DNA of 64,000 bases from assembly GCA_038087875.1 (NCBI GenBank), contig JAXLNO010000796.1:1-64000 (forward strand), given 5' to 3'. The position numbers were made by a program, and so were the translations under genes. Below the pieces are notes generated by a model. It did not search any database, was not told the origin of the DNA, and saw only the letters and a program-made list of their open reading frames with translations. Source of the stretch: Malacoraja senta. Lineage: Eukaryota. Of this stretch, positions 6,438-34,590 are shown piece by piece (positions within the stretch are counted from its first letter, which is position 1; each line of letters starts with the position of its first letter).

Positions 6438-9400
6438 CACTTGCCTTCGCATTTTCAAATCAACCACACTTGCCTTTGCATTTTCAAAACAACCGCACTT
6501 GCCTTTGCATTTCAAAGCAACCGCACATGCCTTTGCATTTTCAAAGTAAACCACCTTTCGCATTTTCAAAGCAAACCACCTTTTGCATTTTCAAAGCAAA
6601 CCATCTATTGCATTTTCAAACCAAATCTTTTTGCATTTTCAAAGCTAACCACCTTTTGCACTTTCAAAGCAAACCACCTTTTGCATTTTCAAAGCAAACC
6701 AACTTTTGCATTTTCAAAGCAAACCACCTTTTGCATGTTCAAAGCAAACCACCTTTTGCATGTTCAAAGCAAACCACCTTTTGCATTTTCAAAGCAAACC
6801 ACCTTTTGCATTTTCAAAGCAAACCACCTTTTGCATTTTCAAAGCGAACCACCTTTTCCATTCTCAAAGCAAACCACCATTTGCATTTTCAAAGCAAACA
6901 ACCTTTTGCATTTTCAAAGCAAACCACCTTTTGCATTTTCAAAGCAAACCACTTTTTGCAATCTCAAACCAATCCTTTTTGTATTTTCAAACCAAACTTT
7001 TTGCATTTTCAAACCAAACCACCATTTGCATTTTCAAACCAAACCAGCATTTGCATTTTTAAACCAAACCACCATTTGCATTTTCAAACCAAACCAGCAT
7101 TTGCATTTTCAAACCAAACCACCATTTTCTTTTTCAAACCAAACCTTCATTTGCACTTTCAAAGCAAACCTTTTGCATTTGCAAAGCAAACCTTTTGCAT
7201 ACTCAAACCAAACCACCATTTGCATTTTCAATGCAATCATTTTGCATTTTCATACCAAATCTTTTGCATTTTCAAACACAACCACCATTTGCATTTTCAA
7301 ACAAAACCACCATTTGCATTTTCAAACCAAACCACCATTTACATTTTCAAACCAATCCACCATTTGCATTTTCAAACCAAACCATCATTTGCATTTTCAA
7401 ACCAAACCACCATTTGCATTTTCAAACCAAACCTCCTTTTACATTTTCAAACCGAACAGCCTTTTGTATTTTCAAAGCAAACCGCCTTTTGCACTTTCAA
7501 AGCAAACCGCCTTTCGCATTTTCAAAGCAAACTGCCTTTTGCATTTTGAAAGCAAACCGCCTTTTGCATTTTGAAAGCAAACCACCTTTTGTATTTTCAA
7601 AGCAAACCACATGTTGCATTTTCAAAGCAAACAACATTTTGCATTTTCAAAGCAAACCACCTTTTGCATTTTGCAAAGCAAACCACCTTTTGTATGAAGC
7701 AAACCACATTTTGCATTTTCACAGCAAACAACTTTTGCATTTTCAAAGCAAAGCACCTTTGGCATTTTCAAAGCAAACCACCATTTGCATTTTCAAAGCG
7801 AACCTTTTGCATTTTCAAATCCATCCTTTTGCATTTTCAAAGCAAACCTTTTGTATTTTCAAAGCAAACCTTTTGCATTATCAAAGCAAAACACCATTTG
7901 CATTTTCAAAGCAAACCACCGTTAGCATTTTTAAAGCAAACCACCGTTTGCATTTTCAAAGCAAATTTGTTTTCCATTTTCGAAGCAAACCGCCATTTGC
8001 CTTTTCGAAGCAGACCGCCATTTGCATTTTCGAAGCAAACCATCTTTTGCATTTGCAAAGCAAACCACCTTTTGCATTTTCAAAGCAAACCACCTTTTGC
8101 ATTTTCAAAGCAAAACATTTTTCGCATTTTCAAAGCAAACCAACTTTTGCATTTTCAACCCAATCCTTTTGCATTTTCAAACCAAACCTTTAGCATTTTC
8201 GAACCAATCCACCATTTGAATTTTCAAACCAAACCAACATTTGCATTTTCAAACCAAACCATCATTTGCATTTTCAAACCAAACCACCATTTGCATTTTC
8301 AAACCAAACCACCGAACCCCCTTTTTCATTTTCAAGCGGAACCACCTTTTGCATTTTCAGGATACTTTTTGCATGTTCGAAGCAAACCTTTTGCATTTTC
8401 AAAGCAAATCTTTGCATTTTCAAAGCAAACCATTTGCATTTTCAAAGCAAACATTTTGCATTTTCAAAGCAAACCACCTTTTGCATTTTCAGACCAAACC
8501 ACCTTTTGCATTTTTAAAGCAAACCACCCTTTGTATTTTCAAAGCAAACCACATTTTGCATTTTCAAAGCATACTACCTTTTGTATTTTCAAAGCAAACC
8601 ACCATTATCATTTGCAAAGTAAACCTTTTGTATTTTCAAAGCAAACCTTTTGCATTTTCAAAGCAAAATACCATTTGCATTTTCAAAGCAATCCACCTTT
8701 AGCATTTTTAAAGCAAACCACCTTTTGCATTTTCAAAGCAAACCACCATTTGCATTTTCAAACAAAACTACCATTTGCATTTTCAAACCAAACCACCATT
8801 TACATTTTCAAACCAATCCACCATTTGCATTTTCAAACCAAACCATCATTTCCATTTTCAAACCAAAGCACAATTTGCATTTTCAAACCAAACCTCCTTT
8901 TACATTTTCAAACCGAACCCCCTTTTGCATTTTCAAACCGAACCTCCTTTTACATTTTCAAAGCAAACATTTTGCATTTTCAAAGTAAACCTTTTGCATT
9001 TTTAAAGCAAACATTTTGCATTTTGAAAACAAACCATTTGCATTTTCAAAGCAAACATTTTGCATTTTCAAAGCACCTTTTGAATTTTCAAAGCAAAGCA
9101 CCTTTTGCATTTTCAAACCAAACCACCTGTTGCACTTTCAAAGCAAACCGCCTTTCGCATTTTCAAAGCAAACAACGTTTTGCATTTTCAAAGCAAACCA
9201 CCTTTTGCATTTTGCAAAGCAAACCAACTTTTGTATGAAGCAAACCACCTTTTGCATTTTCACAGCAAACAACTTCTGCATTTTCAAAGCAAAGCACCTT
9301 TGGCATTTTCAAAGCAAACCACCATTTGCATTTTCAAAGCAAACCTTTTGTATTTTCAAAGCAAACCTTTTGCATTATCAAAGCAAAACACCATTTGCAT

Positions 9401-12400
9401 TTTCAAAGCAAACTACCGTTAGCATTTTTAAAGCAAAGCACCGTTTGCATTTTCAAAGCAAAAATGTTTTCCATTGTCGAAGCAAACCGCCATTTGCCTT
9501 TTCGAAGCAAACCGCCATTTGCATTTTAGAAGCAAACCATCTTTTGCATTTGCAAAGCAAACCACCTTTTGCATTTTCAAAGCAAACCACCTTTTGCATT
9601 TTCAAAGCAAAACATCTTTCGCATTTTCAAAGCAAACCAACTTTTGCATTTTCAACCCAATCCTTTTGCATTTTCAAACCAAAGCTTTAGCATTTTCGAA
9701 CCAATCCACCATTTGCATTTTCAAACCAAACCAGCATTTGCATTTTCAAACCAAACCATCATTTGCATTTTCAAACCAAACCATCATTTCCATTTTCAAA
9801 CCAAACCACCATTTCCATTTTCAAACCAAACCACCATTTGTATTTTCAAACCAAACCACCATTTGCATTTTCAAACCAAACCACCGAACCCCCTTTTTCA
9901 TTTTCAAACGGAACCACCTTTTGCATTTTCAGGATACTTTTTGCATTTTCGAAGCAAACCTTTTGCATTTTCAAAGCAAATCTTTGCATTTTCAAAGCAA
10001 ACCATTTGCATTTTCAAAGCAAACATTTTGCATTTTCAAAGCAAACCACCTTTTGCATTTTCAGACCAAACCACCTTTTGCATTTTTAAAGCAAACCACC
10101 CTTTGTATTTTCAAAGCAAACCGCATTTTGCATTTTCAAAGCATACTACCTTTTGTATTTTCAAAGCAAACCACCATTTGCATTTTCAAAGCAAACCTTT
10201 TGTATTTTCAAAGCAAATCTTTTGCATTTTCAATGCAAAACACCATTTGCATTTTCAAAGCAACCCACCTTTAGCATTTTTAAAGCAAACCACCTTTTGC
10301 ATTTTCAAAGCAAACCACCATTTGCATTTTCAAACAAAACCACCATTTGCATTTTCAAACCAAACCACCATTTACATATTCAAACCAATCCACCATTTGC
10401 ATTTTCAAACCAAACCTTTAGCATTTTCGAACCAATCCACCATTTGCATTTTCAAACCAAACCAGCATTTGCATTTTCAAACCAAACCATCATTTGCATT
10501 TTCAAACCAAACCATCATTTCCATTTTCAAACCAAACCACCATTTGCATTTTCAAACCAAACCACCATTTGCATTTTCAAACCAAACCACCATTTGCATT
10601 TTCAAACCAAACCACCGAACCCCCTTTTTCATTTTCAATCGGAACCACCTTTTGCATTTTCAGGATACTTTTTGCATTTTCGAAGCAAACCTTTTGCATT
10701 TTCAAAGCAAATCTTTGCATTTTCAAAGCAAACCATTTGCATTTTCAAAGCAAACATTTTGCATTTTCAAAGCAAACACCTTTTGCATTTTCAGACCAAA
10801 CCACCTTTTGCATTTTTAAAGCAAACCACCCTTTGTATTTTCAAAGCAAACTGCATTTAGCATTTTCAAAGCATACTACCTTTTGTATTTTCAAAGCCAA
10901 CCACCATTTGCATTTTCAAACCAAACCAGCATTTGCATTTTCAAACCAAACCATCATTTGCATTTTCAAACCAAACCATCATTTCCATTTTCTAACCAAA
11001 CCACCATTTGCATTTTCAAAGCAAACCTTTTGTATTTTCAAAGCAAATCTTTTGCATTTTCAATGCAAAACACCATTTGCATTTTCAAAGCAACCCACCT
11101 TTAGTATTTTTAAAGCAAACCACCTTTTGCATTTTCAAAGCAAACCACCATTTGCATTTTCAAACAAAACCACCATTTGCATTTTCAAACCAAACCACCA
11201 TTTACATATTCAAACCAATCCACCATTTGCATTTTCAAACCAAACCTTTAGCATTTTCGAACCAATCCACCATTTGCATTTTCAAACCAAACCAGCATTT
11301 GCATTTTCAAACCAAACCATCATTTGCATTTTCAAACCAAACCATCATTTCCATTTTCAAACCAAACCACCATTTGCATTTTCAAACCAAACCACCATTT
11401 GCATTTTCAAACCAAACCACCATTTGCATTTTCAAACCAAACCACCGAACCCCCTTTTTCATTTTCAATCGGAACCACCTTTTGCATTTTCAGGATACTT
11501 TTTGCATTTTCGAAGCAAACCTTTTGCATTTTCAAAGTAAATCTTTGCATTTTCAAAGCAAACCATTTGCATTTTCAAAGCAAACATTTTGCATTTTCAA
11601 AGCAAACACCTTTTGCATTTTCAGACCAAACCACCTTTTGCATTTTTAAAGTAAACCACCCTTTGTATTTTCAAAGCAAACTGCATTTTGCATTTTCAAA
11701 GCATACTACCTTTTGTATTTTCAAAGCCAACCACCATTTGCATTTTCAAACCAAACCAGCATTTGCATTTTCAAACCAAACCATCATTTGCATTTTCAAA
11801 CCAAACCATCATTTCCATTTTCTAACCAAACCACCATTTGCATTTTCAAAGCAAACCTTTTGTATTTTCAAAGCAAATCTTTTGCATTTTCAATGCAAAA
11901 CACCATTTGCATTTTCAAAGCAACCCACCTTTAGCATTTTTAAAGCAAACCACCTTTTGCATTTTCAAAGCAAACCACCATTTGCATTTTCAAACAAAAC
12001 CACCATTTGCATTTTCAAACCAAACCACCATTTACATATTCAAACCAATCCACCATTTGCATTTTCAAACCAAACCTTTAGCATTTTCGAACCAATCCAC
12101 CATTTGCATTTTCAAACCAAACCAGCATTTGCATTTTCAAACCAAACCATCATTTGCATTTTCAAACCAAACCATCATTTCCATTTTCAAACCAAACCAC
12201 CATTTGCATTTTCAAACCAAACCACCATTTGCATTTTCAAACCAAACCACCATTTGCATTTTCAAACCAAACCACCGAACCCCCTTTTTCATTTTCAATC
12301 GGAACCACCTTTTGCATTTTCAGGATACTTTTTGCATTTTCGAAGCAAACCTTTTGCATTTTCAAAGCAAATCTTTGCATTTTCAAAGCAAACCATTTGC

Positions 12401-15400
12401 ATTTTCAAAGCAAACATTTTGCATTTTCAAAGCAAACACCTTTTGCATTTTCAGACCAAACCACCTTTTGCATTTTTAAAGCAAACCACCCTTTGTATTT
12501 TCAAAGCAAACTGCATTTTGCATTTTCAAAGCATACTACCTTTTGTATTTTCAAAGCCAACCACCATTTGCATTTTCAAACCAAACCAGCATTTGCATTT
12601 TCAAACCAAACCATCATTTGCATTTTCAAACCAAACCATCATTTCCATTTTCAAACCAAACCACCATTTGCATTTTCAAACCAAACCACCATTTGCATTT
12701 TCAAACCAAACCACCATTTGCATTTTCAAACCAAACCACCGAACCCCCTTTTTCATTTTCAATCGGAACCACCTTTTGCATTTTCAGGATACTTTTTGCA
12801 TTTTCGAAGCAAACCTTTTGCATTTTCAAAGCAAATCTTTGCATTTTCAAAGCAAACCATTTGCATTTTCAAAGCAAACATTTTGCATTTTCAAAGCAAA
12901 CACCTTTTGCATTTTCAGACCAAACCACCTTTTGCATTTTTAAAGCAAACCACCCTTTGTATTTTCAAAGCAAACTGCATTTTGCATTTTCAAAGCATAC
13001 TACCTTTTGTATTTTCAAAGCCAACCACCATTTGCATTTTCAAAGCAAACCTTTTGTATTTTCAAAGCAAACCTTTTGCATTTTCAAAGCAAAACACCAT
13101 TTGCATTTTCAAAGCAAACCACCTTTAGCATTTTTAAAGCAAACCACCTTTTGCATTTTCAAAGCAAACCACCATTTGCATTTTCAAACAAAACCACCAT
13201 TTGAATTTTCAAACCAAACCACCATTTACATTTTCAAACCAATCCACCATTTGCATTTTCAAACCAAACCATCATTTGCATTTTCAAACCAAAGCACCAT
13301 TTGCATTTTCAAACCAAACCTCCTTTTACATTTTCAAACCGAACCCCCTTTTGCATTTTCAAACCGAACCTCCTTTTACATTTTCAAAGCAAACATTTTG
13401 CATTTTCAAAGTAAACCTTTTGCATTTTAAAGCAAACATTTGCATTTTGAAAACAAACCATTTGCATTTTCAAAGCACACATTTTGCATTTTCAAAGCAC
13501 CTTTTGAATTTTCAAAGCAAACCGCCTTTCGCATTTTCAAAGCAAACTGCCTTTTGCATTTTCAAAGCAAACAGCCTTTTGCATTTTCAAAGCAAACCGC
13601 CTTTTGCATTTTCAAAGCAAACCACCTTTTGTATTTTCAAAGCAAACCACATGTTGCATTTTCAAAGCAAACAACATTTTGCATTTTCAAAGCAAACCAC
13701 CTTTTGCATTTTGCAAAGCAAACCACCTTTTGTATGAAGCAAACCACCTTTTGCATTTTCACAGCAAACAACTTTTGCATTTTCAAAGCAAAGCACCTTT
13801 GGCATTTTCAAAGCAAACCACCATTTGCATTATCAAAGCGAACCTTTTGCATTTTCAAATCCATCCTTTTGCATTTTCAAAGCAAACCTTTTGTATTTTC
13901 AAAGCAAATCTTTTGCATTATCAAAGCAAAACACCATTTGCATTTTCAAAGCAAACCACCGTTAGCATTTTTAAAGCAAACCACCGTTTGCATTTTCAAA
14001 GCAAATTTGTTTTCCATTTTCGAAGCAAACCGCCATTTGCCTTTTCGAAGCAGACCGCCATTTGCATTTTCGAAGCAAACCATCTTTTGCATTTGCAAAG
14101 CAAACCACCTTTTGCATTTTCAAAGCAAACCACCTTTTGCATTTTCAAAGCAAAACATTTTTCGCATTTTCAAAGCAAACCAACTTTTGCATTTTCAACC
14201 CAATCCTTTTGCATTTTCAAACCAAACCTTTAGCATTTCGAAACAATCCACCATTTGCATTTTCAAACCAAACCAGCATTTGCATTTTCAAACCAAACCA
14301 TCATTTGCATTTTCAAACCAAACCACCATTTGCATTTTCTAACCAAACCACCGAACCCCCTTTTTCCTTTTCAAACGGAACCACCTTTTGCATTTTCAGG
14401 ATACTTTTTGCATTTTCGAAGCAAACCTTTTGCATTTTCAAAGCAAATCTTTGCATTTTCAAAGCAAATCTTTGCATTTTCAAAGCAAACCATTTGCATT
14501 TTCAAAGCAAACATTTTGCATTTTCAAAGCAAACCTTTTGCATTTTCAAAGCAAAATACCATTTGCATTTTCAAAGCAATCCACCTTTAGCATTTTTAAA
14601 GCAAACCACCTTTTGCATTTTCAAAGTAAACCACTATTTGCATTTTCAAACAAAACTACCATTTGCATTTTCAAACCAAACCACCATTTACATTTTCAAA
14701 CCAATCCACCATTTGCATTTTCAAACCAAACCATCATTTCCATTTTCAAACCAAAGCACCATTTGCATTTTCAAACCAAACCTCCTTTTACATTTTCAAA
14801 CCGAACCCCCTTTTGCATTTTCAAACCGAACCTCCTTTTACATTTTCAAAGCAAACACTTTGCATTTTCAAAGTAAACCTTTTGCATTTTTAAAGCAAAC
14901 ATTTGCATTTTGAAAACAAACCATTTGCATTTTCAAAGCAAACATTTTGCATTTTCAAAGCACCTTTTGAATTTTCAAAGCAAAGCACCTTTTGCATTTT
15001 CAAACCAAACCACCTGTTGCACTTTCAAAGCAAACCACCTTTCGCATTTTCAAAGCAAACAACGTTTTGCATTTTCAAAGCAAACCACCTTTTGCATTTT
15101 GCAAAGCAAACCACCTTTTGTATGAAGCAAACCACCTTTTGCATTTTCACATCAAACAACTTTTGCATTTTCAAAGCAAAGCACCTTTGGCATTTTCAAA
15201 GCAAACCACCATTTGCATTTTCAAAGCAAACCAGCGTTAGCATTTTTAAAGCAAAGCACCGTTTGCATTTTCAAAGCAAAAATGTTTTCCATTGTCGAAG
15301 CAAACCGCCATTTGCCTTTTCGAAGCAAACCGCCATTTGCATTTTCGAAGCAAACCATCTTTTGCATTTGCAAAGCAAACCACCTTTTGCATTTTCAAAG

Positions 15401-18400
15401 CAAACCACCTTTTGCATTTTCAAAGCAAAACATCTTTCGCATTTTCAAAGCAAACCAACTTTTGCATTTTCAACGCAATCCTTTTGCATTTTCAAACCAA
15501 AGCTTTAGCATTTTCGAACCAATCCACCATTTGCATTTTCAAACCAAACCAGCATTTGCATTTTCAAACCAAACCATCATTTGCATTTTCAAACCAAACC
15601 ATCATAGATACATAGATACATAGAAAATAGGTGCAGGAGTAGGCCATTCGGCCCTTCGAGCCTGCACCGCCATTCAATATGATCATGGCTGATCATCCAA
15701 CTCAGTATCCCGTACCTGCCTTCTCTCCATACCCCCTGATCCCTTTAACCACAAGGGCCACATCTAACTCCCTCTTAAATATAGCCAATGAACTGGCCTC
15801 AACTACCCTCTGTGGCAGAGAGTTCCAGAGATTCACCACTCTCTGTGTGAAAAAGTTTTTCCTCATCTCGGTCTTAAAGGATTTCCCCCTTATCCTTAAG
15901 CTGTGACCCCTTGTCCTGGACTTCCCCAACATCGGGAACAATCTTCCTGCATCTAGCCTGTCCAACCCCATAAGAATTTTGTACGTTTCTATAAGATCCC
16001 CTCTCAATCTCCTAAATTCCAGCGAGTATAAGCCAAGTCTATCCAGTCTTTCTTCATATGAAAGTCCTGACATCCCAGGAATCAGTCTGGTGAACCTTCT
16101 CTGCACTCCCTCTATGGCTATAATGTCCTTCCTCAGATTTGGAGACCAAAACTGTACGCAATACTCCAGGTGTGGTCTCACCAAGACCCTGTACAACTGC
16201 AGTAGAACCTCCCTGCTCCTATACTCAAATCCTCTTGCTATGAAGGCCAACATACCATTCGCTTTCTTCACTGCCTGCTGCACCTGCATGCCTACTTTCA
16301 ATGACTGGTGTACCATGACACCCAGGTCTCGCTGCACCTCCCCATTTCCTAATCGGCCACCATTTAGATAATAGTCTGCCTTCCCGTTTTTGCCACCAAA
16401 GTGGATAACCTCACATTTATCCACATTATACTGCATCTGCCAAACATTTGCCCACTCACCCAGCCTATCCAAGTCACCTTGCAGTCTCCTAGCATCCTCC
16501 TCACAGCTAACACTGCCCCCCATCTTAGTGTCATCCGCAAACTTGGAGATGTTGCTTTCAATTCCCTCGTCCAGATCATTAATATAAATTGTAAATAGCT
16601 GGGGTCCCAGCACTGAGCCTTGCGGTACCCCACTAGTCACTGCCTGCCATTGTGAAAAGGACCAGTTTTCAAACCAAACCACCATTTCCATTTTCAAACC
16701 AAACCACCATTTGCATTTTCAAACCAAACCACCATTTGCATTTTCAAACCAAACCACCGAACCCCCTTTTTCATTTTCAAACGGAACCACCTTTTGCATT
16801 TTCAGGATACTTTTTGCATTTTCGAAGCAAACCTTTTGCATTTTGAAAGCAAATCTTTGCATTTTCAAAGCAAACCATTTGCATTTTCAAAGCAAACATT
16901 TTGCATTTTCAAAGCAAACCACCTTTTGCATTTTCAGACCAAACCACCTTTTGCATTTTTAAAGCAAACCACCCTTTGTATTTTCAAAGCAAACCGCATT
17001 TTGCATTTTCAAAGCATACTACCTTTTGTATTTTCAAAGCAAACCACCATTTGCATTTTGAAAGCAAACCTTTTGTATTTTCAAAGCAAACCTTTTGCAT
17101 TTTCAAAGCAAAACACCATTTGCATTTTCAAAGCAACCCACCTTTAGCATTTTTAAAGCAAACCACCTTTTGCATTTTCAAAGCACCCCACCATTTGCAT
17201 TTTCAAACAAAACCACCATTTGCATTTTCAAACCAAACCACCATTTACATATTCAAACCAATCCACCATTTGCATTTTCAAACCATACCTTTAGCATTTT
17301 CGAACGAATCCACCATTTGCATTTTCAAACCAAACCAGCATTTGCATTTTCAAACCAAACCATCATTTGCATTTTCAAACCAAACCATCATTTCCATTTT
17401 CAAACCAAACCACCATTTGCATTTTCAAACCAAACCACCATTTGCATTTTCAAACCAAACTACCGAACCCCCTTTTTCATTTTCAATCGGAACCACCTTT
17501 TGCATTTTCAGGATACTTTTTGCATTTTCGAAGCAAACTTTTTGCATTTTCAAAGCAAATCTTTGCATTTTCAAAGCAAACCATTTGCATTTTCAAAGCA
17601 AACATTTTGCATTTTCAAAGCAAACACCTTTTGCATTTTCAGACCAAACCACCTTTTGCATTTTTAAGGCACCCTTTGTATTTTCAAAGCAAACTGCATT
17701 TTGCATTTTCAAAGCATACTACCTTTCGTATTTTCAAAGCAAACCACCATTTGCATTTTCAAAGCAAAGCTTTTGTATTTTCAAAGCAAACCTTTTGCAT
17801 TTTCAAAGCAAAACACCATTTGCATTTTCAAAGCAAACCACCTTTAGCATTTTTAAAGCAAACCACCTTTTGCATTTTTAAAGCAAACCACCATTTCCAT
17901 TTTGCAACAAAACCACCATTTGCATTTTCAAACCAAACCACCATTTACATTTTCAAACCAATCCACCATTTGCATTTTCAAACCAAACCATCATTTGCAT
18001 TTTCAAACCAAAGCACCATTTGCATTTTCAAACCAAACCTCCTTTTACATTTTCAAACCGAACCCCCTTCTGCATTTTCAAACCGAACCTCCTTTTACAT
18101 TTTCAAAGCAAACATTTTGCATTTTCAAAGTAAACCTTTTGCATTTTTAAAGCAAACATTTGCATTTTGAAAACAAACCATTTGCATTTACAAAGCACAC
18201 ATTTTGCATTTTCAAAGCACCTTTTGAATTTTCAAAGCAAACCGCCTTTCGCATTTTCAAAGCAAACTGCCTTTTGCATTTTCAAAGCAAACAGCCTTTT
18301 GTATTTTCAAAGCAAACCGCCTTTTGCATTTTCAAAGCAAACCACCTTTTGTATTTTCAAAGCAAACCACATGTTGCATTTTCAAAGCAAACAACATTTT

Positions 18401-20380
18401 GCATTTTCAAAGCAAACCACCTTTTGCATTTTGCAAAGCAAACCACCTTTTGTATGAAGCAAACCACCTTTTGCATTTTCACAGCAAACAACTTTTGCAT
18501 TTTCAAAGCAAAGCACCTTTGGCATTTTCAAAGCAAACCTTTTGTATTTTCAAAGCAAACCTGTTGCATTATCAAAGCAAAACACCATTTGCATTTTCAA
18601 AGCAAACTTCCGTTAGCATTTTTAAAGCAAACCACCTTTTGCATTTTCAACCCAATCCTTTTGCATTTTGAAACCAAACCTTTAGCATTTTCGAACCAAT
18701 CCACCATTTGCATTTTCAAACCAAACCAGCATTTGCATTTTCAAACCAAACCATCATTTGCATTTTCAAACCAAACCACCATTTCCATTTTCAAACCAAA
18801 CCACCATTTGCATTTTCAAACCAAACCATCATTTCCATTTTCAAACCAAACCACCATTTGCATTTTCAAACCAAACCACCATTTGCATTTTCAGACAAAA
18901 CCACCTTTTGCATTTTCAAAGCAAACCATCATTTGCATTTTCAAACCAAACCACCATTTGCATTTTCAAACCAAACCACCGAACCCCCTTTTTCATTTTC
19001 AAATGGAACCACCTTTTGCATTTTCAGGATACTTTTTGCATTTTCGAAGCAAACGTTTTGCATTTTCAAAGCAAATCTTTGCATTTTCAAAGCAAATCTT
19101 TGCATTTTCAAAGCAAACCATTTGCATTTTCAAAGCAAACATTTTGCATTTTCAAAGCAAACCACCTTTTGCATTTTCAGACCAAACCACCTTTTGCATT
19201 TTTAAAGCAAACCACCCTTTGTATTTTCAAAGCAAACCACATTTTGCATTTTCAAAGCATACTACCTTTTGTATTTTCAAAGCAAACCACCATTATCATT
19301 TTCAAAGTAAACCTTTTGTATTTTCAAAGCAAACCTTTTGCATTTTCAAAGCAAAATACCATTTGCATTTTCAAAGCAAACCACCTTTTGCATTTTCAAA
19401 GCAAACCACCATTTGCATTTTCAAACAAAAGTACCATTTGCATTTTCAAACCAAACCACCATTTACATTTTCAAACCAATCCACCATTTGCATTTTCAAA
19501 CCAAACCATCATTTCCATTTTCAAACCAAAGCACTATTTGCATTTTAAAACCGAACCTCCTTTTACATTTTCAAAGCAAACATTTTGCATTTTCAAAGTA
19601 AACCTTTTGCATTTTTAAAGCAAACATTTGCATTTTGAAAAAAAACCATTTGCATTTTCAAAGCAAACATTTTGCATTTTCAAAGCACCTTTTGAATTTT
19701 CAAAGCAAAGCACCTTTTGCATTTTCAAACCAAACCACCTGTTCCACTTTGAAAGCAAACCGCCTATCGCATTTTCAAAGCAAACAACGTTTTGCATTTT
19801 CAAAGCAAACCACCTTTTGCATTTTGCAAAGCAAACCACCTTTTGTATGAAGCAAACCACCTTTTGCATTTTCACAGCAAACAACTTTTGCATTTTCAAA
19901 GCAAAGCACCTCTGGCATTTTCAAAGCAAACCACCATTTGCATTTTCAAAGCAAACCTTTTGCATTATCAAAGCAAAACACCATTTGCATTTTCAAAGCA
20001 AACTACCGTTAGCATTTTTAAAGCAAAGCACCGTTTGCATTTTCAAAGCAAAAATGTTTTCCATTGTCGAAGCAAACCGCCATTTGCCTTTTCGAAGCAA
20101 ACCGCCATTTGCATTTTCGAAGCAAACCATCTTTTGCATTTGCGAAGCAAACCACCTTTTGCATTTTCAAAGCAAACCACCTTTTGCATTTTCAAAGCAA
20201 AACATCTTTCGCATTTTCAAAGCAAACCAACTTTTGCATTTTCAACCCAATCCTTTTGCATTTTCGAACCAATCCACCATTTGCATTTTCAAACCAAACC
20301 ACCATTTCCATTTTCAAACCAAACCACATTTTGCATTTTCAAAGCAAACCCCCTTTAGCATTTTTAAAGCAAACCACAAT
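6438..20380. repeat. Satellite DNA array of about 14 kb; 25-bp monomer with 22-bp and 29-bp variants and higher-order structure
   Basis: Monomers GCATTTTCAAAGCAAACCACCTTTT and GCATTTTCAAACCAAACCACCATTT. Rare landmark variants recur at fixed spacings (830 bp and about 1.4-1.55 kb). The array ends in an N gap. Confidence 0.97.
15604..16665 (-). mobile_element. 5'-truncated CR1/HER1 LINE inserted in the satellite (RT C-terminal half, uninterrupted frame)
   Basis: ORF 15702-16697: GVPQGSVLGPQLF...FADDTK...LVRPHLEYCVQFWSP...FFTQRVVNLWNSLP. The 3' tail is (TATCTATG)n at about 15604-15625. Confidence 0.96.
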
Positions 20381-21182: not shown

Positions 21183-21488
21183 ATAACAAGAAGAGTTGAG
21201 TATAGGAGCAAAGAGGTCCTTCTCCAGTTGTACAGGGCCCTGGTGAGAACACACCTGGAGTATTGTGTGCAGTTTTGGCCTGTTGGCCTTTATAACAAGA
21301 GGAGTTGAGTATAGGAGGAAACATGTCCCTCTGCAGTTGTACAGGGCCCTGGTGAGACCAGACCTGGAGTATTGTGTGCAGTTTTGGCCTGTTGGCCTTT
21401 ATAACAAGAGGAGTTGAGTATAGGAGCAAAGAGGTCCTTCTGCAGTTGTACAGAGCCCTGGTGAGACCACACCTGAAGTATTGTGTGC
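21183..21488 (+). repeat. Tandem triplication of a 109-bp CR1 RT fragment
   Basis: Units start at 21183, 21292 and 21401. They encode ITRGVEYRSKEVLLQLYRALVRPHLEYCV-like CR1 sequence. Confidence 0.88.
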
Positions 21489-21532: not shown

Positions 21533-22239
21533 ATTCATCCCCAACAACACTGGTCCGGATGGGTCAGTGTCAAGAGCCCTAGCAGGTCTCACCTCTCTGA
21601 CTATCGAATCGGCTGAGAACTCTGGAGTAGACAACTCCTGGACTGGGTTTCTAGACTCCTGGTTTGGGAAATGGAAGCACATCTTTACCTCAGCTCTAAC
21701 ATCAGTTGCAGTCATGGTGGGGTTACTGTGTTTGTTCGGATGTTGTATCATTCCCTGCGTACGGGGATTGGCTCAGCGATTGATAGAAACAGCCCTGACA
21801 AAGAACAGCGCCGCCACCATGATGGCTTTCAGAACACAGTATAACCAACGAGAGGGGGATAGGGAGGCAAAGAATCTGCTGCTAGCATTAGAAAGGAGGA
21901 TATAGTATAAATCAAAGGTTGCGTAGCAAAAAAGAAAAGGGTGGATTGTGAGGAAAGAGTTAACAGACATAGTTGATTTAGACTAGGGATAGAAAAATGG
22001 CTTGTGGTGTCAGCAGAAGCCAGACTGCTGGTAAAATAGAAAATAATGACATATAGAACAGAGGGAGAAATTCTAGATAAAAAGTAGCAAATTCAGCAGA
22101 AGATTTGAGAAGTAAGTAGAAAGGGAGAAAGTACATAAGGTCAAACATATCTGCGCATGCCTAATGAACTTACATGAATATGTACACACACCCACTATGA
22201 CAAGATGCCTAATTTAAATGCACATGCGATGCATGATAT
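21533..22239 (+). mobile_element. env: Endogenous retrovirus copy A: env TM C-terminus, PPT and partial LTR (U3, 21947-22239)
   Basis: FIPNNTGPDGSVSRALAGL...CCIIPCVRGL is near-identical to 24060-24765. PPT AAGAAAAGGGTGGAT is followed by TGTGAG at 21947. Confidence 0.92.
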
Positions 22240-22549
22240 AGAACTAAAAATTAAAGGATTGCTGGCCCAGAGCCCACCACTGGACTTCCCGATACACTCA
22301 GTCAAGGCTGGAGACTGGGTATTAATAAAAATGTGGAAAGAAGAAAAGCTGCAACCTAAGTGGACTGGACCCTACCTGGTGTTACTAATCACCGAGACGG
22401 CAGTACGAACAAAAGAGAAAGGGTGGACACACGCAAGTCGAGTTAAGGGTCCTGTGGAGGCCCCACCAGACAATATCAGCCCGTGGACTGTGCGCAAAGG
22501 AGAGGAACCATTGACTTTAATATTTACCAAGAACCCGCGGGAAAAATGA
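22240..22549 (+). pseudogene. pol: ERV copy B pol, integrase C-terminal remnant
   Basis: IHSVKAGDWVLIKMWKEEKLQPKWTGPYLVLLITETAVRTKEKGWTHASRVK matches the retroviral integrase C-terminal W.GPY.V motif. The stop TGA overlaps the env ATG. Confidence 0.88.
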
Positions 22550-24438
22550 AGATTTCGTGTTGGTGGGTCGTGTGTTGGGTGGTTACCCAACTCGTGAGTA
22601 ATATAACATGCATAAAAATCACAATACCACAGAATAGAAGGTCCACCACCATCCCGTTTAATGTATGTAAAGGAAAATGGTGGTGTGGCTATAGAATGTA
22701 TGTATGCACCCATCCCTGTAGAAATTGGCACGCGGTGTTCACTTCATCAAGAGAAGGGTGGCATCAGCCCACCTATCAAACTGATAGGTGGAAAGTACAT
22801 CAAAACCCAAACGAGAAATTGCCAGGACGTATATATGTGAGCATACAGAATGTTCAAATGCAGGAAAGTGGTAGGTATTGGATATGTGCAGATAGAACAG
22901 GGAAGGACACATGTCTGAAGTTTGAGATAGAAGTGAAGCGGGATGGGGAGATGGTAAGATAAGAGAATAGGGGAAAGGTGTTCAAGATAGATGACAGTCA
23001 GAATAGGGATCCCGGGGCAACACCAGCACCACCAGTAGTCAGCAAAGTCACCAGGGAGAATGAGTCTAAGGATCTGAATATAATGATAGTAGAAGGAGAA
23101 ACAGGATTAATGCAGTTATATGAGAAGGGAATACCAACAGGGGGAAAAGGAGCCAACACCTGGCTTGCCTGGATGATGTACACAGCCAGAAGTATGCAAT
23201 GAACCAATTGTTACACCTGCGCCGGAGCTAGGCCTCAGCTGGTCCCAGTACCATTTCCCCTGAATTGGAATAGAACACCTAGGGCTATGTCATGTATACT
23301 ACAGCTATTCACGAATCCCCTCTTACCAAAGAATGTGATATGCCAGAATTATCATTACCTATTTCCGACCAGCAACAACAATACGAAGGGCCGATCCTCG
23401 ACCTCCTCCATTTACCAGTCCTCTTGGGGAGGAGGGGTTTGAGTGCTATACAAGAAATAACCCAGAGGGACAGGATATGGGGAAGGTGCTCAACTGCAAT
23501 CAGACGTATAACATAACGGCTGAGGAACAGGGACCACTGTTCAATAGCTCCTGGCTGAAAAAGCAGATAGTCAGTAGAGCCGATGTCTGGTGGTGGTGCG
23601 GGGAGAATACCCTGTGGCCCCGGTTACCTGGACGGGAACCTGTACCCTCACACAACTGATGATGCCCTTCACCATAGCAGTAGAACATGCTGTAGAACTC
23701 AATGAAGGAAGCCAACGACAAAAGAGAGGGGTGAAAGGATCATTCGACACACACATATATATAGATGCGATAGGGGTGACAAGAGGGGTACCCGATGAAT
23801 TCAAAGCCAGAAACCAGATAGCTGCGGGCTTTGAGTCCATGATCTTCTGGTGGTCCACAATTAATAAAAATGTGGACTGGATCAACTACCTATACTACAA
23901 TCAACAACGCTTTATAAATTACACTCGAGATGCAGTTGAAGGATTAGCGGAACAACTGACAGCTACCAGCCAAATGGCCTGGCAAAATCGCATGGCCTTG
24001 GACATGCTACTGGCTGAGAAGGGAGGGGTATGTGTAATGTTTGGCGAACAATGTTGCACATTCATCCCCAACAACACTGCTCCGGATGGGTCAGTGTCAA
24101 GAGCCCTAGCAGGTCTCACCTCTCTGACTATCGAATTGGCTGAGAACTCTGGAGTAGACAACTCCTGCACTGGGTTTCTAGAATCCTGGTTTGGGAAATG
24201 GAAGCACATCTTTACCTCAGCTCTAACATCAGTTGTAGTCATGGTGGGGTTACTGTGTTTGTTCGGATGTTGTATCATTCCCTGCATACGGGGATTGGCT
24301 CAGCGATTGATAGAAACAGCCCTGACAAAGAACAGCGCCGCCACCATGATGGCCTTCAGAACACAGTATAACCTACGAGAGGGGGATAGGGAGGCGAAGA
24401 AGCTGCTGCTAGCATTAGAAAAGGAAGATATAGTATAA
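22546..24438 (+). pseudogene. env: ERV copy B gamma-type env, full span but disrupted (stops at 22960 and 23200, about three frameshifts in SU)
   Basis: Signal peptide MKISCWWVVCWVV; CXXC (CYTC, 23209-23220); furin site RQKR (23716-23727); immunosuppressive domain QNRMALDMLLAEKGGVC; CX6CC (CVMFGEQCC); hydrophobic TM anchor. Confidence 0.93.
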
Positions 24439-24474
24439 ATCAAAGGTTGCGTAGCAAAAAAGAAAAGGGTGGAT

Positions 24475-25030
24475 TGTGAGGAAAGAGTTAACAGACATAG
24501 TTGATTTAGACTAGGGATAGAAAAATGGCTTGGGGTGTCAGCAGAAGCCAGACTGCTGGTAAAATAGAAAATAACGATATATAGAACAGAGAGAAATTCT
24601 AGATAAAAAGTAGCAAATTCAGCAGAAGATTTGAGAAATAAGTAGAAAGGGAGAAAGTACATAAGGTCAAACATATCTGTGCATGCCTAATGAACTTACA
24701 TGAATATGTACACACACCCACTAAGACAAGATGTCCCATTTAAATGCACATGCGATGCATGATATGGGAGGTGTCTTTGACGTCGGGTGGACGTTCCAGG
24801 ACGTTCTCGTGGGAATGTGGGCTTTATGTTATGATTGGAAGAAGCACAATGGGGAGGGATGAGGGTGTGACAATGATACCCATGAAATGTATAAAGATAG
24901 AAGACATCCCGATCCTCGGTGTGCCTCTATGGGACATCAGAGGAGGCACCTATTCTGCAGAATATGATTTAAATAAAAAGCTTCTTTGCCGACTTTGTCT
25001 CTAAAAGCGTTTGTGATTTTGCATCTCACA
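24475..25030 (+). mobile_element. ERV 3' LTR (556 bp)
   Basis: Follows the PPT. It has TGTGAG...CTCACA inverted termini, a TATA-like TATAAAG at 24890-24896 and AATAAA at 24972-24977. Confidence 0.88.
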
Positions 25031-25961
25031 CTTATGTATGGCTTAATTGTATTCATGCATAGTATGATTTGGCTGAATACCACGCAAAGGGGTTTTCACT
25101 GTATCTAGTTACCCGTGTCAATAATAAACCAACACGTTGTATCTATCGATTGCAACACCCAGTGTTTATTTTAAGCAGGTAGCAAGGTTGTATTAACATT
25201 TCCTTTTTGCCTTTGACTACGTGGTGAATGTAAAGATGGGTCATAATGCACTGTATCTTTACTACTGTTTATTGCTGCCCTAGCTGTCCGTGGTCTGTCA
25301 CTGGAACCAGAGAGAGAGAGAACTGGGTGGGAAGGTTGTAATTATACCAGTGATGTGGGGAGTGGTTAGTAGTGGTGAGGTCACTATGTTAAAGGTACAT
25401 GCACATTTCATCTACAGTGAAGAGCCATCTTTTTTTCCACCGCTGAAGACCTCCTGGCGCCAGTACAATATTCTGTCGGCGTGGGGCGATTCGGCATTTG
25501 CAATACTGAGGATCAGGACATATTTCCAAATCAGAATGGCGGTCAATTTGGATCTTGATCTGCAGGTGCTATTTTTACACGGTAGATTTCAAAGGGAGAA
25601 CAGCACTAATTGCCCGCTTGGAAAGCGAAAGGGTGTTGATTCCACCGTCCAGAGGAAAATGATTATAATCTTCCATTCAGTGGCCAAAAGTAACACCAGT
25701 CCAAATTAGTCATTTTCCCTGCAGCTTCCAAGTTCACGCGAGTCCTACTGTCTGGTCAAAAAGACGGTGATTCAATTATTATTTGAACAGAGATTGATGG
25801 CGGAGGAGTTAGCTTGGTAATGTTATTGAATGTCAAGGCAGTTTACATCTTGCCTAATACTACACCTGCAAACAACTTTGCTGACATTCACACATTTCCT
25901 AAATATGGAACTCATATCTATACCAACATCTTTGATTTAAATCAGAAAATACAAACAAAAT

Positions 25962-31390: not shown

Positions 31391-34300
31391 AAATAAAATA
31401 CTTCCCCCTAGTCCCATCTACCTGCACTCAGACCATAACCCTCCATTCCTTTCCCGTCCATATACCCATCCAATCTATTTTTAAAGGATAACATCGAACC
31501 TGCCTCCACCACTTCCACTGGAAGCTCATTCCACACAGCTACCACTCTCTGAGTAAAGAAGTTCCCCCTAATGTTCCCCCTAAACTTCTGTCCCTTAATT
31601 CTCAAGTCATGTCCCCTTGTTTGAATCTTCCCTACTCTCAATGGGAAAAGCTTATCCACGTCCACTCTGTCTAACCCGCTCATAATTTTAAAGACCTCTA
31701 TCAAGTCCCCTCTTAACCTTCTGCGCTCCAAAGAATAAAGACCTAACTTGTTCAACCTTTCTCTGTAACTTAGTTGCTGAAACCCAGGCAACATTCTAGT
31801 AAATCTCCTCTGTACTCTCTCTATTTTGTTGACATCCTTCCTATAATTAGGCGACCAAAACTGTACTCCATACTCCAGAATTGGCCTCACCAATGCCTTG
31901 TACAATTTTAACATTACATCCCAACTTCTATATTCAATGCTCTGATTTATAAAGGCCAGCACACCAAAAGCTTTCTTTACCACCCTATCTACATGAGATT
32001 CCACCTTCAGGGAACTATGCACAGTTATTCCTAGATCCCTCTGTTCAACTGCATTCCTCAAATCGCTACCATTTACCATGTACGTCCTATTTTGATTTGT
32101 CCTGCCGAGATGTAGCACCTCACATTTGTCAGCATTAAACTCCATCTGCCATCTTTCAGCCCACTCTTCCAAATGGCCTAAATCTCTCTGTAGACTTTGA
32201 AAATCTACTTCATTATCCACAACACCACATATCTTAGTATCATCTGCATACTTACTAATCCAATTTTCCACACCTTCATCCAGATCATTGATGTACATGA
32301 CAAACAACAGTGGACCCAACACAGACCCCCTGAGGCACCCCACTAGTCACCGGCCTCCAACCTGACAAACAGCCATCCACCATTACTCTCTGGCATCTCC
32401 CATTCAGCCACTGTTGAATCCATCTTGCTACTCCACCATTAATACCCAACAATTGAATCTTCTTAACCAACCTTCCATGAGGAACCTTGTCAAAGGCCTT
32501 ACTGAAGTCCATATAGACAACATCCACTGCTTTACCCTCATCAATTTCCCTAGTAACCTCTTCGAAAAATTCAAGAAGATTAGTCAAGCATGACCTTCCA
32601 GGCACAAATCCACGTTGACTGTTCCTAATCAGACCCTGCTTATCCAGATGCTTATATATATTATCTTTAAGTATCCTTTCCATTAATTTGCCCACCACTG
32701 ACGTCAAACTAACAGGTCTATAATTGCTAGGTTTACTCTTCGAACCCTTTTTAAACAACGGAACAACATGCGCAGTACGCCAATCCTCCGGCACTATTCC
32801 CGTTTCTAATGACATTTGAAATATTTCTGTCATAGCCCCTGCTATTTCTACACTAACTTCCCTCAATGTCCTAGGAAATATCCTGTCAGGACCTGGAGAC
32901 TTATCCGTTTTCATATTTTTCAAAAGTGTCCGCACCTCCTCTTCTTTGAATATCACAGTTTCCATTGCTACTCTGCTCGTTTCCCTTACCTCACATAATT
33001 CCATATCCTTCTCCTTCGTGAATACCGAAGAAAAGAAATTGTTCAATATCTCCCCCATCTCTTTTGGCTCTGCAGATAGCTGTCCACTCTGACTCTCTAA
33101 TGGACCGATTTTATTCCTTGTTATCCTTTTGCTATTAATATAGCTGTAGAAACCCTTTGGATTTACTTTCACCTTACTTGCCAAAGCAACCTCATATCTT
33201 CTTTTAGCTTTTCTAATTTCTTTCTTAATATTCTTTTTACATTCTTTATACTCCTCAAGCACCTCATTTACTCCATGCTGCCTATAATTATTGTAGATCT
33301 CTCTCTTTTTCCGAACCAAGTGTCCAATTTCCCTTGAAAACCATGGCTCTTTCCATTTTTTACTATTTCCTTTCAACCGAACAGGGACATAAAGATTCTG
33401 TACTCTTAAAATTTCACCCTTAAATGTCCTCCATTTTTCTTCTACATCCTTCCCATAAAACAACATGTCCCAATTCACTCCTTTTAAATCCTTTCGCATC
33501 TCCTCAAAGTTAGCCTTTCTCCAAACAAAAATCTCAACCCTAGGTCCAGTTCTGACCCTCTCCATAATTATATTGAAACTAATGGTATTGTGATCACTGG
33601 ACCCGAAGTGCTCCCCGACGCATACCTCCGCCACTTGCCCCGTCTCATTTCCTAACAGGAGGTCCAGCACTGCCCCTTCTCTAGTAGGTACCTCTATGTA
33701 TTGCTGCAAAAAACTATCTTGCACACATTTTACAAACTCCAAACCATCCAGCCCTTTTACAGAATGTGTTTCCCAGTCTATGTGTGGAAAATTGAAATCT
33801 CCCACAATCACTACCTTGTGCTTACTACTAATATCTGCTATCTCCTTACATATTTGCTCTTCCAATTCTCGCTCCCCATTTGGCGGTCTATAATACACCC
33901 CTATAAGTGTTGCTACACCTTTCCCAATTCTCAGTTCCACCCAAATAGCCTCCCTAGACGAGCCCTCTAATCTATCCTGCCAAAGCCCTGCTGTAATATC
34001 TTCCTTGACAAGCAATGCAACACCCCCACCTCTTGCCCCTCCAATTCTATCACCCCTGAAGCAACGAAATCCTGGAATATTTATTTGCCAATCACAGCCC
34101 TCCTGCAACCATGTTTCACTGATCGCCACAACATCATACTTCCAGGTGTCAATCCAGGCTCTAAGCTCATCCACCTTTCTTACAATGCTCCTAGCATTAA
34201 AATATACACATTTAAGAAACCCACCACCACTTATTCTCTGTTTATTATCTTTTTCTTCTTTCTCTCCTACATTTTGGGTCCGAGTGCTTCCCTTCTCTGC

Positions 34301-34590
34301 CTCCTGCCTCCCACATTTTCCACTAGCTTTCTCTATTTGAGTCCCTCCCCCCAACCGTTCTAGTTTAAAGTCTCCCCAGTAGCCTTTGCAAATCTCCCCG
34401 CCAGGATATTGGTGCCCCTCGGGTTCAAGTGCAACCCGTCCTTTCTGTACAGGTCACTCCTTCCCCAAAAGAAATCCCAATGATCCAGAAATTTGAATCC
34501 CTGCCCGCTGCACCAGTTCCTCAGCCACGCATTTATCCTCCACCTCACTCCATTCCTACTCTCACCGTCACGTGGCACAGGTAGTAATCC
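31293..34590 (-). mobile_element. CR1 LINE, truncated within ORF1, with an essentially complete ORF2 (APE endonuclease + RT) broken by one +1 frameshift
   Basis: ORF1 esterase-like C-terminus 34578-34360 (AWLRNWC...FLDHW...YRKDGLHL). ORF2 runs 34354-32285 (YFNARSI, SETWL, GDFNFP, SDHN, DKSPGPD, YRPVSL, YMDFSKAFDKV) and 32343-31408 (SVLGP, YADDTK). 3' tail cataaccata near 31293. Confidence 0.97.

Follow-up and report, generated by a model that had tools for sequence, protein, structure and literature searches.

The window analysed here, one whole 64-kb contig of a 1.94 Gb genome, contains a retroviral env gene whose N-terminal head domain we interpret, with a probability of about 0.7, as a compact member of the RBD-C class of receptor-binding domains (RBDs), with a predicted IgV fold and a likely role in receptor binding, which likely preserves traits of an ancient CD300/pIgR-like donor of the whole family. 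The domain lies at the position of an RBD, carries the RBD-C motifs, is homologous to RBD-C and is conserved across copies in the genome, and we place it in RBD-C (EnvP(b)1/ZFERV branch) with high confidence. The initial annotation had described the start of this Env as a CD300/pIgR-like immunoglobulin V domain, possibly captured from a host immune receptor. The V fold was recovered, as was the likeness to CD300/pIgR; the notion of an extra module captured by this virus was not, since the head is an ordinary RBD-C domain and that class is itself IgV-like. The annotation had also counted best structural matches to ordinary retroviral RBDs, and not to host V-set domains, as evidence against its reading, and this case applies by half, as the head is RBD-C and RBD-C is IgV-like. 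Any capture is ancient and common to the whole RBD-C class.

The head domain sits inside env, between pol and the LTR, and is not part of a host gene with its own membrane anchor and signalling tail. The features of the locus are as follows:

21533..22239, plus strand: partial tandem duplicate comprising the 3' end of env and the start of the LTR (96.8% to 24060-24765)
22240..22549, plus strand: pol 3' tail, integrase C-terminal domain (MLVIN_C, E=4.6e-11)
22546..22611, plus strand: env start (ATG at 22546) and likely signal peptide, assigned by eye
22612..22941, plus strand: compact RBD with predicted IgV fold (RBD-C class, CD300/pIgR-like), env residues 23-132
22960..22962, plus strand: premature stop at env codon 139, six codons past the head domain
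23011..23034, plus strand: short proline-rich linker motif
23200, plus strand: second premature stop, env codon 219, just ahead of the CXXC
23209..23220, plus strand: SU CXXC motif
23716..24438, plus strand: TM subunit carrying CX6CC (Pfam TLV_coat, E=1.8e-12), preceded by the furin site at 23716-23727
24475..25033 (about), plus strand: 3' LTR, with bounds set by comparison with the two LTRs of another natural copy

The start of env at 22546 overlaps the end of the integrase C-terminal domain, and the residues quoted for the V domain in the annotation are present in the frame opened by this ATG (22612-22941), with the proline-rich motif and then the CXXC downstream, as had been described. The hallmarks of a gamma-type Env (CXXC in SU, CX6CC in TM and a furin site) are present in a copy interrupted by stops and frameshifts, of which those between about 23390 and 23630 further break the SU core, and this copy makes no full Env. 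The TM part and, despite the broken copy, the head domain itself are open frames, the latter with six cysteines and the marker residues Y52, W61, W72 and D121 (env numbering). The first stop spares the signal peptide and the entire domain (22546-22962), and by analogy the window copy, if expressed, would yield a secreted RBD-only product resembling FeLIX. The 171-codon frame length is the same in one other copy among those listed, and the stop giving the RBD-only frame is probably a chance mutation. The duplicate at 21533-22239 is joined directly to the pol tail, on its 5' side. Elsewhere in the window there is a 14-kb array of a 25-bp satellite (6475-20377) with a LINE-like fragment inside (15702-16718), a 109-bp LINE-derived piece in triplicate (21183-21488), and a long minus-strand frame that is LINE-like (31408-34453) and possibly of the CR1 type.

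The env family is young and abundant. All 150 scored candidates, out of 372 in the genome, matched the domain (73-100% identity), giving a family of at least 150 copies, and 14 of them keep an open frame no shorter than 657 codons; assembly duplication may account for some of the copies. In ten copies that were retrieved the frames have 630-634 residues, and pairwise pN/pS over these ten, which were chosen for their open frames and are not independent, was 0.36 in the head domain, 0.33 in the SU core and 0.24 in TM. The marker Tyr, Cys, Cys, Trp, Trp, Gly and Asp residues and all six cysteines were invariant in 39/39 counted copies, and in one deleted copy (L055) the LTRs are 99.0% identical. 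Tandem arrays of the env family occur at several places in the genome. Two loci (L051 and L052) have a 394-codon frame over the SU core and TM, with no Ig-domain match in the fetched stretch, and represent a subfamily with another RBD or none.

The models indicate that the head domain is an Ig V fold. As a single sequence it fell short of the cut-off in the Pfam V-set search (E=0.049), and had no sequence match under E 0.01 in PDB, while in the ESM Atlas all ten of the ten best matches belonged to the V-set clan (top 0.90), with an FcalphamuR-like protein at rank 2. AlphaFold gave a pLDDT of 62 for the sequence alone and of 85 with a 6-row alignment, in which five related Env heads were added. 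The first of these models, mediocre at pLDDT 62, had no retroviral RBD among its top 50 structure matches; for the better model, Foldseek placed pIgR at 8/10 top rows together with CD300lf, and 6W5Y (EnvP(b)1) was absent from the Foldseek top 50 but listed by VIA-align. In the latter comparison the predicted model reached Z about 11 with host V domains, the 11.4 obtained for pIgR D2 being tied with Siglec, butyrophilin and CD300lf. The best match in the viral library, an entry without a name, is 201 aa long, the length of the 6W5Y chain. The annotation had also remarked on the replaced or shifted canonical B-F cysteines, and these are indeed missing, with Ile at the F-strand position and, by spacing, Phe at the B-strand position. 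Three disulfides are predicted (BC loop, C-C' and F-G hairpin), with the pairing taken from spacing.

That leukaemia-virus RBDs have an IgV-like fold is long established. RBD-C domains are described, in the portions available of three sources, as modified IgV domains without the B-F disulfide (PMC7683403, PMC12051499, bioRxiv 2024.03.17.585361), and the last of these describes a conserved tetrad (MLV Tyr119, Trp144, Trp154 and Asp217, beside Cys121-Cys141) that is not a general IgV feature. The head domain likewise has an IgV fold without B-F disulfide and lies upstream of linker and CXXC, and alignment identified counterparts of MLV Tyr119, Trp144, Asp217 and Cys121-Cys141 (Y52, W61, D121, C54 and C58), with W72 matched to Trp154 by spacing. 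A first homologue search for the head domain returned a single same-family fragment only. A search with TM gave 341 Envs; the best 120 of them cover sharks, teleosts, frogs, birds and primates, with gibbon EnvP(b)1 among them, and have heads with the same series of motifs and longer loops. The shark proteins near the top of this search, together with the types of repeat in the window, suggest that the host may be a cartilaginous fish. A profile of 42 such long-loop RBDs, picked by motif alone, scored 19.7 bits against the head domain, compared to at most 10.3 for 1000 shuffles. An 18-row profile made from a subset of these, which matches EnvP(b)1 (6W5Y, by construction) and the FeLV RBD (E=3.2e-6), aligned to the head domain in HHalign at 94.9% over 99 columns. 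With VIA-align all 110 residues (110/110) superposed on EnvP(b)1 6W5Y (Z 10.1, rmsd 2.8, 19% identity), and the window domain formed one clade with EnvP(b)1 in a domain tree of 55 rows (95/91) and in one of 46 rows (98/99), the latter made without six teleost domains and the three Envs that have canonical cysteines.

Within RBD-C, the head domain shares with the Pb(1) type (EnvP(b)1 6W5Y and ZFERV; also the MLV/FeLV RBDs 1AOL and 1LCS) the N-terminal position before a proline-rich linker and CXXC, the IgV topology lacking the B-F disulfide and having the C-C' disulfide, the Tyr/Trp/Asp markers, an F-G loop of 8 residues and a related TM. It differs in its length (110 residues vs about 150), in its C-x3-C, in keeping E-x-G-x-Y and in having two additional, paired cysteines in its F-G hairpin. 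As the VRA helix and the expanded VRA, VRB and VRC loops of the Pb(1) type are absent, we class the head as an RBD-C variant rather than a typical member of the Pb(1) type. The Fc type (BabFc env) is described as being without discernible VRA and VRB, as in the head domain, but by description it does not have the tetrad, which the head domain does.

The likeness to CD300/pIgR was apparent from a protein search, the compact-RBD profile, Foldseek, the alignment of strands and HHalign of the long-loop profile. Among 1.84 billion proteins the sole match outside the family came from a wrasse, in a protein that carries five V domains (27% identity, summed E=4.6e-11). A 6-row profile of compact RBDs, hand-picked and including two canonical-Cys Envs (P0032 and P0063), had pIgR and CD300f at ranks 1-12 in PDB; without these two rows there was no PDB match at E 0.001, and CD300, pIgR or FcmuR accounted for 8/28 weak matches. 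The long-loop RBD profile, built without regard to CD300, had nine sub-threshold matches in PDB, all V domains, with CD300lf or teleost pIgR in 4/9. In HHalign, this profile gave 33% with the CD300-like set of the same genome and 57% with the teleost set, the latter biased upward as these proteins came from env-query matches, vs at most 4.8% for five other V sets. The window domain gave 1.4% with the host's own CD300-like set, and is 20% identical to the host's own CD300-like domain. Against V domains of the same genome, the single sequence scored CD300-like and other sets alike (p=0.09) and a 4-row profile gave p=0.06 with a light-chain V as top score, both values overstating independence as the CD300-like set is mostly one tandem cluster. 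Host V exons of the CD300/pIgR-like kind, many of them near-identical, form a large tandem cluster at G000:C5:0.87-1.77 Mb of the host genome (loci L031-L050, L066 and several of L083-L097).

At the level of individual residues, the V-set fold of the head domain includes a C-C' cysteine pair (bond predicted) as in CD300/pIgR, its E-to-G strands align with CD300 free of gaps, G-x-D included, and its F-G loop length and G-x-D equal those of human CD300f and mouse CD300lf. Compared with CD300/CMRF35-like and pIgR V domains (CD300lf 6C74, CD300f 2NMS, pIgR 1XED/5F1S), fold (Z about 11), C-C' cysteines, F-G loop and pocket residues agree, but identity is 16-20%, the B-F disulfide is lacking, and the domain is part of a viral Env and not of a host receptor with its exon, TM and signalling tail. 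In trees with host V domains sampled from one genome plus two proteins, the branch parting other V domains from RBD-C and CD300/pIgR was supported at 86/89 and 80/88, and AU tests rejected neither alternative (p=0.26 and 0.12); on these sequences, the trees favour CD300/pIgR ancestry without proving it.

These same data allow a different reading, in which the head is an ordinary RBD-C domain that has lost its loops; its CD300 likeness would be generic V-fold similarity together with a C-C' disulfide that arose by convergence, and would point to no donor. The AU results fit it, as do the absence of a family preference from the single sequence, structure Z-scores tied across CD300, pIgR, TREM2, Siglec and butyrophilin, and the presence of a long-loop RBD (P0043) among the nearest TM neighbours. 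It is nevertheless unlikely in our estimation, as profiles of long-loop RBDs also prefer the CD300-like sets, and Y-x-C, the second Cys and the Asp at F-Cys+7/+8 co-occur only in CD300-like host domains, the Asp being found in 10/16 same-genome CD300-like domains vs 0/22 other V domains.

The lipid cleft of CD300lf is described, in the part available of PMC6166816, as formed by Cys36-Cys44, Tyr34, Trp89, Met100, Gln41 and Arg42, and Lys94, Gly96 and Asp98 as holding the Ca2+; lipid binding by CD300 is also treated in PMC12570474. Alignment places identical counterparts of Tyr34, Cys36, Cys44, Trp89, Gly96 and Asp98 of this pocket in the head domain, and these include the Tyr, Asp and disulfide of RBD-C. 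It could be supposed that the head domain is still a CD300-like Ca2+/phospholipid or Ig binder, which would serve lipid-mediated attachment or immune interference and not protein-receptor binding. The pocket floor and metal-binding Asp are identical and invariant in the counted copies, as this would predict, but the C-C' loop is only three residues long and so leaves no counterparts of Gln41 and Arg42, the cleft would probably be occupied by Trp61, and in RBD-C the Trp residues are reported to pack over the Tyr (bioRxiv 2024.03.17.585361). With the loop thus shortened and the Trp over the Tyr, retained lipid binding is less likely, and we regard it as improbable.

The canonical-type cysteines survive in the heads of three other Envs, P0032 (residues 20-127), P0063 and P0142 (both about 73-195), which have the F-strand and B-strand Cys and V-set scores; the P0032 head passes the Pfam V-set cut-off, and the first PDB match of the P0063 head is pIgR. 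These Envs fall in two separate TM clades, and their heads are either repeat captures or a retained ancestral state. On the TM tree, a quick version of 122 rows that is poorly resolved and gives no order of compact vs long-loop forms, the compact RBDs are not one clade, and the scatter of compact and canonical heads fits RBD exchange in either direction.

A host IgV-type domain at the RBD position is also found in the SIRP-like Env-Dbi (Hotzel 2024), a recent capture with canonical disulfide, clear host similarity and an alpha-like Env, none of which applies to the head domain. A recent, lineage-specific replacement of the RBD by a host CD300/pIgR exon would have this precedent (bioRxiv 2024.03.17.585361) and a potential source in the host CD300-like cluster, and P0032 and P0063/P0142 may be such cases, but for the window domain we reject it as very improbable, given the 20% host identity, the missing B-F disulfide, the F-D/N-x-C, C-x-x-W and second Trp common to the head domain and RBD-C, and the 98/99 clade with EnvP(b)1.

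We return to the compact RBD-C domain with CD300/pIgR-like traits. Gamma-type Envs undergo signal and furin cleavage, after which SU is tied to TM by CXXC/CX6CC, and receptor binding by the RBD triggers CXXC/CX6CC isomerisation and TM-driven fusion. The gamma-type receptors listed in the available part of PMC9967133 are mostly solute carriers, and by analogy the head domain would bind a protein on the host cell surface, a multi-pass transporter being most likely, and would thereby trigger TM-driven fusion. With regard to its history, a host V exon may have been captured once; the B-F disulfide would then have been lost, a pair of Trp residues would have come to cover the former ligand cleft, and the VRA, VRB and VRC loops would have grown long in most lineages. 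We consider the odds slightly better than even that the RBDs of MLV, FeLV, EnvP(b)1 and their kin descend from a captured V domain of the CD300/pIgR family, that their conserved Tyr/Cys-Cys/Asp cluster is a relic of the CD300 lipid/metal pocket, and that compact fish/shark-type Envs and canonical-Cys Envs are surviving intermediates or repeat captures.

The available text of the Hotzel 2024 preprint (bioRxiv 2024.03.17.585361) treats a host origin of RBD-C as unproven and the donor as not identified, and the words 'CD300', 'fish' and 'shark' are absent from its main text. Full-text literature searches, with subscription journals largely outside their reach, gave no paper linking RBD-C to CD300/pIgR, and a term search of bioRxiv 2021.11.23.469661, PMC12813294, PMC13709493 and bioRxiv 2023.10.07.561363 gave no mention of immunoglobulin. 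That RBD-C is IgV-like is already published; what appears to be new is that a loop-minimal form and a few relatives keep a sequence likeness to CD300/pIgR, and that the residues marking RBD-C fall, by alignment, on the lipid/metal pocket of CD300lf (Tyr34, Cys36-Cys44, Asp98). The class as a whole likely came from a CD300/pIgR-like host gene long ago. The head domain is detectably similar to both RBD-C and CD300/pIgR. This points to a candidate family for the donor, offers an origin for the tetrad, and brings the question of where RBD-C came from within direct reach of phylogeny and of structural work on small soluble domains.
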